Positions 11,842 through 12,527 of a stretch of 64,000 bases of DNA are shown one piece after another. Where the stretch lies: sequence record MN648445; one strand, written 5' to 3'. The notes beneath the pieces are model-generated. The model was not told the origin of the DNA. It saw only the letters and a program-made list of their open reading frames with translations, and made no database searches. The first letter of the stretch is position 1. The number at the start of each line of letters is the position of its first letter. The position numbers were made by a program, and so were the translations under genes. This stretch comes from Escherichia phage FP43.

Positions 11842-12072
11842 ATGTCTACTGAAACTATCGAAAAACTGCAGTCTGAAATCGTTACTCTGAAATCTCGCAT
11901 TCTTGATACTCAAGACCAAGCAGCTGCTATTCAGCAAGAATCTCAGCAACTTGGTAGTGCTCTTGCTAAAATCGCTAATCTGGTTGGTATCACCGGCGAA
12001 TCAGTTAAGATTGATGACCTGGTAGAAGCAGTACGTGAACTTGTTAAAGCTGAAACCACAGAAGAAGAATAA
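11842..12072 (+). CDS. 57A: Tail-fibre assembly chaperone gp57A
   Basis: 76-aa acidic coiled-coil ORF in the T4 57A position. Confidence 0.75.
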
Positions 12073-12527
12073 TGAAATTTGAGGACTTTTCACAAGGCCT
12101 CTATGTCGCAGCTAAGTTTTCAGAATTAACACTTGATGCGCTGGAAGACCTCCAGCGTAAATTAAGAATTCCTAATCCAGTACCACGTGAAAAGCTTCAT
12201 TCAACGATTTGTTATTCGCGTGTAAACATACCATATACTACATCTAGCGGCAGTTATTCTGTTGCTGAATCAGGGCACTTTGAGGTATGGAAAACTGACG
12301 ACGGCGCTATACTGGTTTTAGTTCTTGATTCTGAATATCTTAGATGTCGTCATCAGTATGCACGAGCTTTAGGTGCTACTCATGATTTCGACGACTACAC
12401 TCCACATATAACGTTATCATATAACGTTGGCCAACTATCATTCAGTGGTGATGTAGCTATTCCGGTTATTCTCGACCGTGAATACAAAGAACCCTTAAAA
12501 CTAGATTGGGCCGAAGATCTAAAATAA
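12072..12527 (+). CDS. 57B: 57B protein, 2H-phosphoesterase-like (T4 Acb1 anti-CBASS position)
   Basis: 151 aa; two H-x-T/S motifs (KLHSTI, TPHITL); synteny with T4 57B. Confidence 0.7.

Follow-up and report, generated by a model that had tools for sequence, protein, structure and literature searches.

The closest described relative of the gene considered here is gene 57B of bacteriophage T4, which was pinned by activity-guided fractionation as the source of the cyclic GMP-AMP (cGAMP)-degrading activity of T4-infected cells, and whose product is Acb1, a protein directed against CBASS, the antiphage signalling system based on cyclic oligonucleotides (Hobbs et al. 2022, PMC9117128). Cleavage activity has been demonstrated for T4 Acb1 and nine homologues, and structures of the homologue from phage FBB1 have been solved with and without ligand (PMC9117128). 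The catalytic tetrad of Acb1 consists of two HxT motifs (H44, T46, H113, and T115), the aromatic residues Y12, W74, F107, and W147 stack on the bases, E141 contacts the N6 of adenine, and a C-terminal lid (residues 145-152) shuts over the ligand in FBB1 Acb1 (PMC9117128). Catalysis by T4 Acb1 is abolished in the H44A/H113A double mutant, cyclic tetra-adenylate (cA4) is not cleaved by the enzyme, and T4 lacking acb1 is restricted by CBASS (PMC9117128); T4 Acb1 is likewise inactivated by deletion of residues 145-152 (10.1101/2025.08.21.671373). Transposon sequencing showed insertions in 57B to be depleted on the CBASS host only. In addition, T4 Acb1 rapidly consumes 2'3'-c-di-AMP and thereby activates Panoptes (10.1101/2025.08.21.671373). 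Here the corresponding gene is described in a stretch of 64,000 nucleotides from Escherichia phage FP43 (sequence record MN648445), the whole of which is referred to as the window.

An open reading frame (ORF) at 12072-12527 encodes, with a probability of roughly 0.95, an ortholog of T4 Acb1 (gp57B), a small, single-domain anti-CBASS enzyme of the 2H phosphoesterase type. The frame was taken from the ORF list, the motifs are invariant in a 56-sequence family alignment, and the lid was placed by alignment to T4:

12072..12527, + strand: acb1 (57B) coding sequence, one unbroken ORF of 151 codons and a stop, with its ATG at 12072 and its stop ending at 12527
12198..12206, + strand: first HxT motif, LHSTI, H43-S44-T45 (T4 equivalents H44 and T46)
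12405..12413, + strand: second HxT motif, PHITL, H112-I113-T114 (T4 equivalents H113 and T115)
12501..12524, + strand: C-terminal lid, residues 144-151, LDWAEDLK, including the stacking residue W146

The initial annotation had placed a 2H phosphoesterase at this ORF, which is real and has exactly those coordinates, and had stated that T4 57B was reported as Acb1, which is borne out by Hobbs et al. 2022 (PMC9117128). Its argument was built on LHSTI and PHITL as two H-x-T/S motifs about 95 residues apart; both motifs are present, but their histidines are 69 residues apart, the same spacing as that of H44 and H113 in T4 Acb1. The translation contains exactly two H-x-T/S triplets. Of the 107 open frames in the window that are 100 amino acids or longer, 9 contain two or more such triplets, so that the pair by itself is weak evidence, the significance of which comes from homology; the case was accordingly rebuilt on homology and on the invariance of alignment columns.

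The homology is extensive. The protein matches the Pfam family PF23474, 'Anti-CBASS protein Acb1', at 196.2 bits (E 2.7e-58) against a gathering cutoff of 27 bits, with residues 8-149 covering positions 1-144 of the 144-position profile, and Acb1 of Erwinia phage FBB1, for which a crystal structure exists (PDB 7T26), is matched at E 1.4e-58. A large protein collection yielded 86 homologues, all of which contain PF23474, and wherever a UniRef name is given, it is 'Anti-CBASS protein Acb1'. The family alignment, comprising 56 of the 86 homologues with identity reaching down to ~30%, has only seven invariant columns, and H43, T45, H112, and T114 account for four of them. A tblastn search found the acb1 product in 1,469 phage records, among which phage p000y carries a 100% identical copy.

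Compared to T4 gp57B (NP_049750.1), 129 of 151 residues (85%) are identical over the full length without gaps, and nucleotide identity between the two genes is 75.5%. The T4 protein has the same length apart from one extra annotated N-terminal Met, and all nine of its named functional residues are unchanged in the window protein, numbered minus 1. These are the catalytic tetrad (H43, T45, H112, and T114), the stacking residues Y11, W73, F106, and W146, equivalent to T4 Y12, W74, F107, and W147, and E140, equivalent to T4 E141. The T4 lid (145-152) reads LDWADDLK and differs from that of the window protein by a single D-to-E change. The 22 substitutions are mostly conservative or located in surface-like segments (residues 2-8, 56-66, and 76-80). 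Compared to FBB1 Acb1 (PDB 7T26, apo; 7T27, with 3'3'-cGAMP product), there is a one-residue insertion in the FBB1 protein after window residue 78, and FBB1, an Erwinia phage, differs in host genus.

AlphaFold2 run with the 56-sequence alignment gave a confident model, with a predicted local distance difference test score (pLDDT) of 89.6 and a predicted template modelling score (pTM) of 0.82. Only the first five and the last four residues (148-151) are poorly defined in this model, and the low confidence at the latter fits a flexible lid. With high confidence, the acb1 product is predicted to share the 2H phosphoesterase fold seen in Acb1 crystal structures, the two H-x-T/S motifs lying on a duplicated alpha/beta lobe fold that is compact and carries the C-terminal lid. 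Both the 2H fold and the identification of the gene as 57B, in the position of T4 Acb1, had been put forward in the initial annotation; the interpretation is supported by the predicted fold together with the 85% identity, the Pfam Acb1 match, and the location of the gene between 57A and ipI. The computationally testable hallmarks of the Acb1 family are all present, including the T4-type genomic position with 57A upstream and ipI downstream.

By orthology, the substrates, chemistry, and anti-CBASS phenotype of the window protein would be those of T4 Acb1. After infection, it would bind cyclic di- and trinucleotides produced by CBASS cGAS/DncV-like nucleotidyltransferases (CD-NTases) in a U-shaped pocket, with 3'3'-cGAMP, cUA, cAAA, and related adenosine-containing signals as putative substrates. 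Y11, W73, F106, and W146 would stack on the bases, E140 would contact the adenine N6, and the lid 144-151 would shut over the ligand. The tetrad H43/T45/H112/T114 could then perform metal-independent acid-base catalysis, in which the adenosine 2'-OH would attack the 3'-5' phosphodiester to give a 2',3'-cyclic phosphate intermediate and, upon its hydrolysis, a linear 3'-phosphate product. Destruction of the signal would keep CBASS effectors such as Cap4, Cap5, and CapV inactive, and it is proposed that the phage thereby escapes abortive infection.

Several points weigh against this assignment or its scope. The dN/dS of 0.066 relative to T4 (Nei-Gojobori), which indicates that the protein is expressed and kept under strong purifying selection, is an approximate figure, as dS is saturated at 1.85. 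The AlphaFold2 model computed from the single sequence was unusable (pLDDT 40.7), leaving the alignment-based model as the only usable one. The quantitative substrate preference could deviate from that of T4 Acb1 because 22 positions differ, and the signal attacked in vivo could be one outside CBASS.

The former point leads to the alternative that substitutions such as those in the segments 56-66 and 76-80, which flank the stacking residue W73, shift the substrate preference. One possibility is a lower activity on 2'3'-c-di-AMP, by which the phage would avoid Panoptes-type decoy sensing while still defeating CBASS. Such substrate specificity has been attributed to the phosphodiesterase (PDE) core, and a phosphodiesterase of Burkholderia phage BCSR5 ('2H PDE-9') mostly spares 2'3'-c-di-AMP and does not trigger Panoptes (10.1101/2025.08.21.671373). 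This enzyme (PDB 9Q2G/9Q2Y) degrades 3'3'-cGAMP and shares the 2H core and the structural group of T4 Acb1, although it has only ~17-21% identity and its lid is N-terminal, not C-terminal (10.1101/2025.08.21.671373). No positive sign of a shift of this kind emerged, and it is considered very improbable in the window protein.

It is slightly less probable again that the protein is a true Acb1-family enzyme whose main selective advantage in the natural hosts of the phage lies in degrading non-CBASS signals, such as cA3 of type III CRISPR systems or 2'3'-c-di-AMP, so that the term 'anti-CBASS' would be too narrow. T4 Acb1 falls within a structurally defined set of viral 2H PDEs with a broad range that spans the messengers of CD-NTases, regulatory messengers, and those of type III CRISPR systems, its rapid consumption of 2'3'-c-di-AMP makes it a Panoptes trigger (10.1101/2025.08.21.671373), and the Acb2 sponge of the same phage, described below, already covers CBASS signals. 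However, T4 acb1 has reported phenotypes in vivo on CBASS hosts only, Acb1 does not cleave cA4 (PMC9117128), and no feature of the window discriminates between the candidate targets. This would in any case be a refinement of the role of the same enzyme, not a different identity.

The least probable alternative, and an extremely unlikely one, makes the product an RNA enzyme of the LigT kind (a 2'-5' RNA ligase or an RNA 2',3'-cyclic phosphodiesterase) that works on RNA ends, for instance during repair of tRNA or mRNA, as implied by the 'RNA ligase' label on PHROG 755 and many RefSeq records; this identity was rejected on the basis of a partial match to Pfam PF13563 (LigT / 2'-5' RNA ligase) over residues 76-131 only, which scores 15.3 bits where the cutoff is 27, and of a structural similarity to LigT-type enzymes far weaker than that to Acb1. 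Because the PF13563 score lies below the cutoff, the label can be regarded as an echo of the superfamily and not as a family assignment. Identity of the window protein to E. coli LigT, CPDase, Usb1, AKAP18, coronavirus ns2, rotavirus VP3, and the avian poxvirus cGAMP PDE is at most 17%; these cellular and viral 2H phosphoesterases are larger (170-290 amino acids), are devoid of the Acb1 C-terminal lid, and act on other substrates (RNA ends, 2'-5' oligoadenylate, and 2'3'-cGAMP). In public records, orthologs of 57B/Acb1 still commonly go under the names 'RNA ligase' or 'hypothetical protein' (T4 NC_000866, JK45 NC_054940, and PHROG 755), labels that are outdated given the characterisation of 2022.

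The Acb1 ortholog is embedded in a T4-like setting. The DNA of the window is that of a T4-like Straboviridae coliphage, with 97-98% DNA identity to vB_Eco_NicPhage, vB_EcoM_G53, JK45, and Mizar, and the Mizar record already labels the gene 'anti-CBASS Acb1-like protein'. The gene order around acb1 matches that of T4, in which 57B occupies the same slot between 57A and ipI, and that of JK45. Gene 3 (tail terminator), gene 1 (deoxynucleoside monophosphate kinase; Pfam DNMK, E 1.4e-96), and 57A are located upstream, and the features adjoining acb1 are as follows:

11842..12072, + strand: 57A, tail-fibre chaperone (Pfam GP57, E 5.9e-23)
12540..12580, + strand: PeSL-type element found in the promoter scan, an early-promoter -35 box (GTTTACA) with a ~12 bp hairpin (-15.4 kcal/mol)
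12604..12891, + strand: ipI, internal protein I, an inhibitor of the GmrS/GmrD restriction enzyme (Pfam IPI_T4, E 3.2e-50; 87% identity to T4 IPI)

The TAA stop of 57A shares one base with the acb1 ATG (TAATG; GAAGAATAATGAAA), whereas 57A and 57B overlap by 4 nt in T4; the overlap suggests that translation of 57A and acb1 is coupled. The adjacency of Acb1 and ipI has been pointed out as an anti-defence cluster (Hobbs et al., PMC9117128). Two reverse-strand ORFs at 12395-12487 and 12001-12093 (30 amino acids each) are regarded as chance frames.

The PeSL-type element lies immediately downstream of the acb1 stop, and an element of this type, differing in stem sequence, occupies the equivalent position behind 57B in T4. 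It is likely to form the 3' boundary of the acb1 transcript and the promoter for ipI. Such 'promoter-early stem-loop' (PeSL) cassettes mediate modular shuffling in T4-type phages (PMC2839356, PMC4122927). Seven PeSL-type cassettes were found on the + strand (12540-12580, 12895-12935, 13226-13262, 20177, 21472, 31820, and 35981), each made up of GTTTACA, a hairpin of ~11-14 bp (-13 to -21 kcal/mol), and TATCA(A), and three of the seven bracket ipI and two small ORFs after it. A promoter and terminator scan of 10400-13400 showed no enrichment, with 9 promoter-like sites compared to 10.6 expected from shuffles, and the PeSL-type sites alone were retained from the promoter scan because they recur with a hairpin. 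An exact match to the T4 late-promoter consensus TATAAATA was found at 11480-11487 (+ strand), inside gene 1 and ~360 nt upstream of 57A and acb1. As a pattern match, this site could drive late co-transcription of 57A and acb1, which would fit the middle/late expression described for T4 57B (10.64898/2026.03.30.715471).

An ORF of 87 amino acids at 12960-13223 (+ strand) has no Pfam match and belongs to phrog_13302, of unknown function; in Mizar, another ORF occupies the slot. The N-terminus of the 87-residue product (MKTYKEFIAE...STLSE) matches the capsid-targeting leader of IPI that is cleaved by the prohead protease, suggesting that the product may be an additional packaged or injected internal protein, and possibly another anti-defence factor. 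Farther downstream, only two tRNA genes (Met-CAT and Arg-TCT) are present at 14730-14884 (+ strand); the corresponding region of T4 contains eight tRNAs, segB, and the small RNAs C and D. Scanned with Rfam, the full 64 kb yielded nothing beyond these two tRNAs, and the acb1 ORF and its surroundings gave no structured RNA.

A second anti-CBASS gene was identified in the window:

27174..27419, + strand: acb2 (vs.4) homologue, cyclic-nucleotide sponge (tblastn with T4 Vs.4: 70% identity, E 2e-33)

This ORF contains the Pfam PF24729 Acb2/Tad1 hairpin domain (E 9e-18), and its presence beside acb1 means that the phage carries both known T4 anti-CBASS proteins. Acb1, the Acb2 homologue, and ipI constitute the standard T4 anti-defence kit. 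Nothing sets the window acb1 apart from its many sequenced orthologs, and it is an ordinary gene of a kind already known. The proper label is acb1 (anti-CBASS 2H phosphodiesterase), in place of 'hypothetical protein' or 'RNA ligase', and the finding has little import beyond annotation. Knowing that the phage carries this anti-defence kit is useful for forecasting how its host range extends among CBASS-carrying E. coli, with phage therapy as one application, and for forecasting the sensitivity of the phage to Panoptes-type systems that detect signal depletion.
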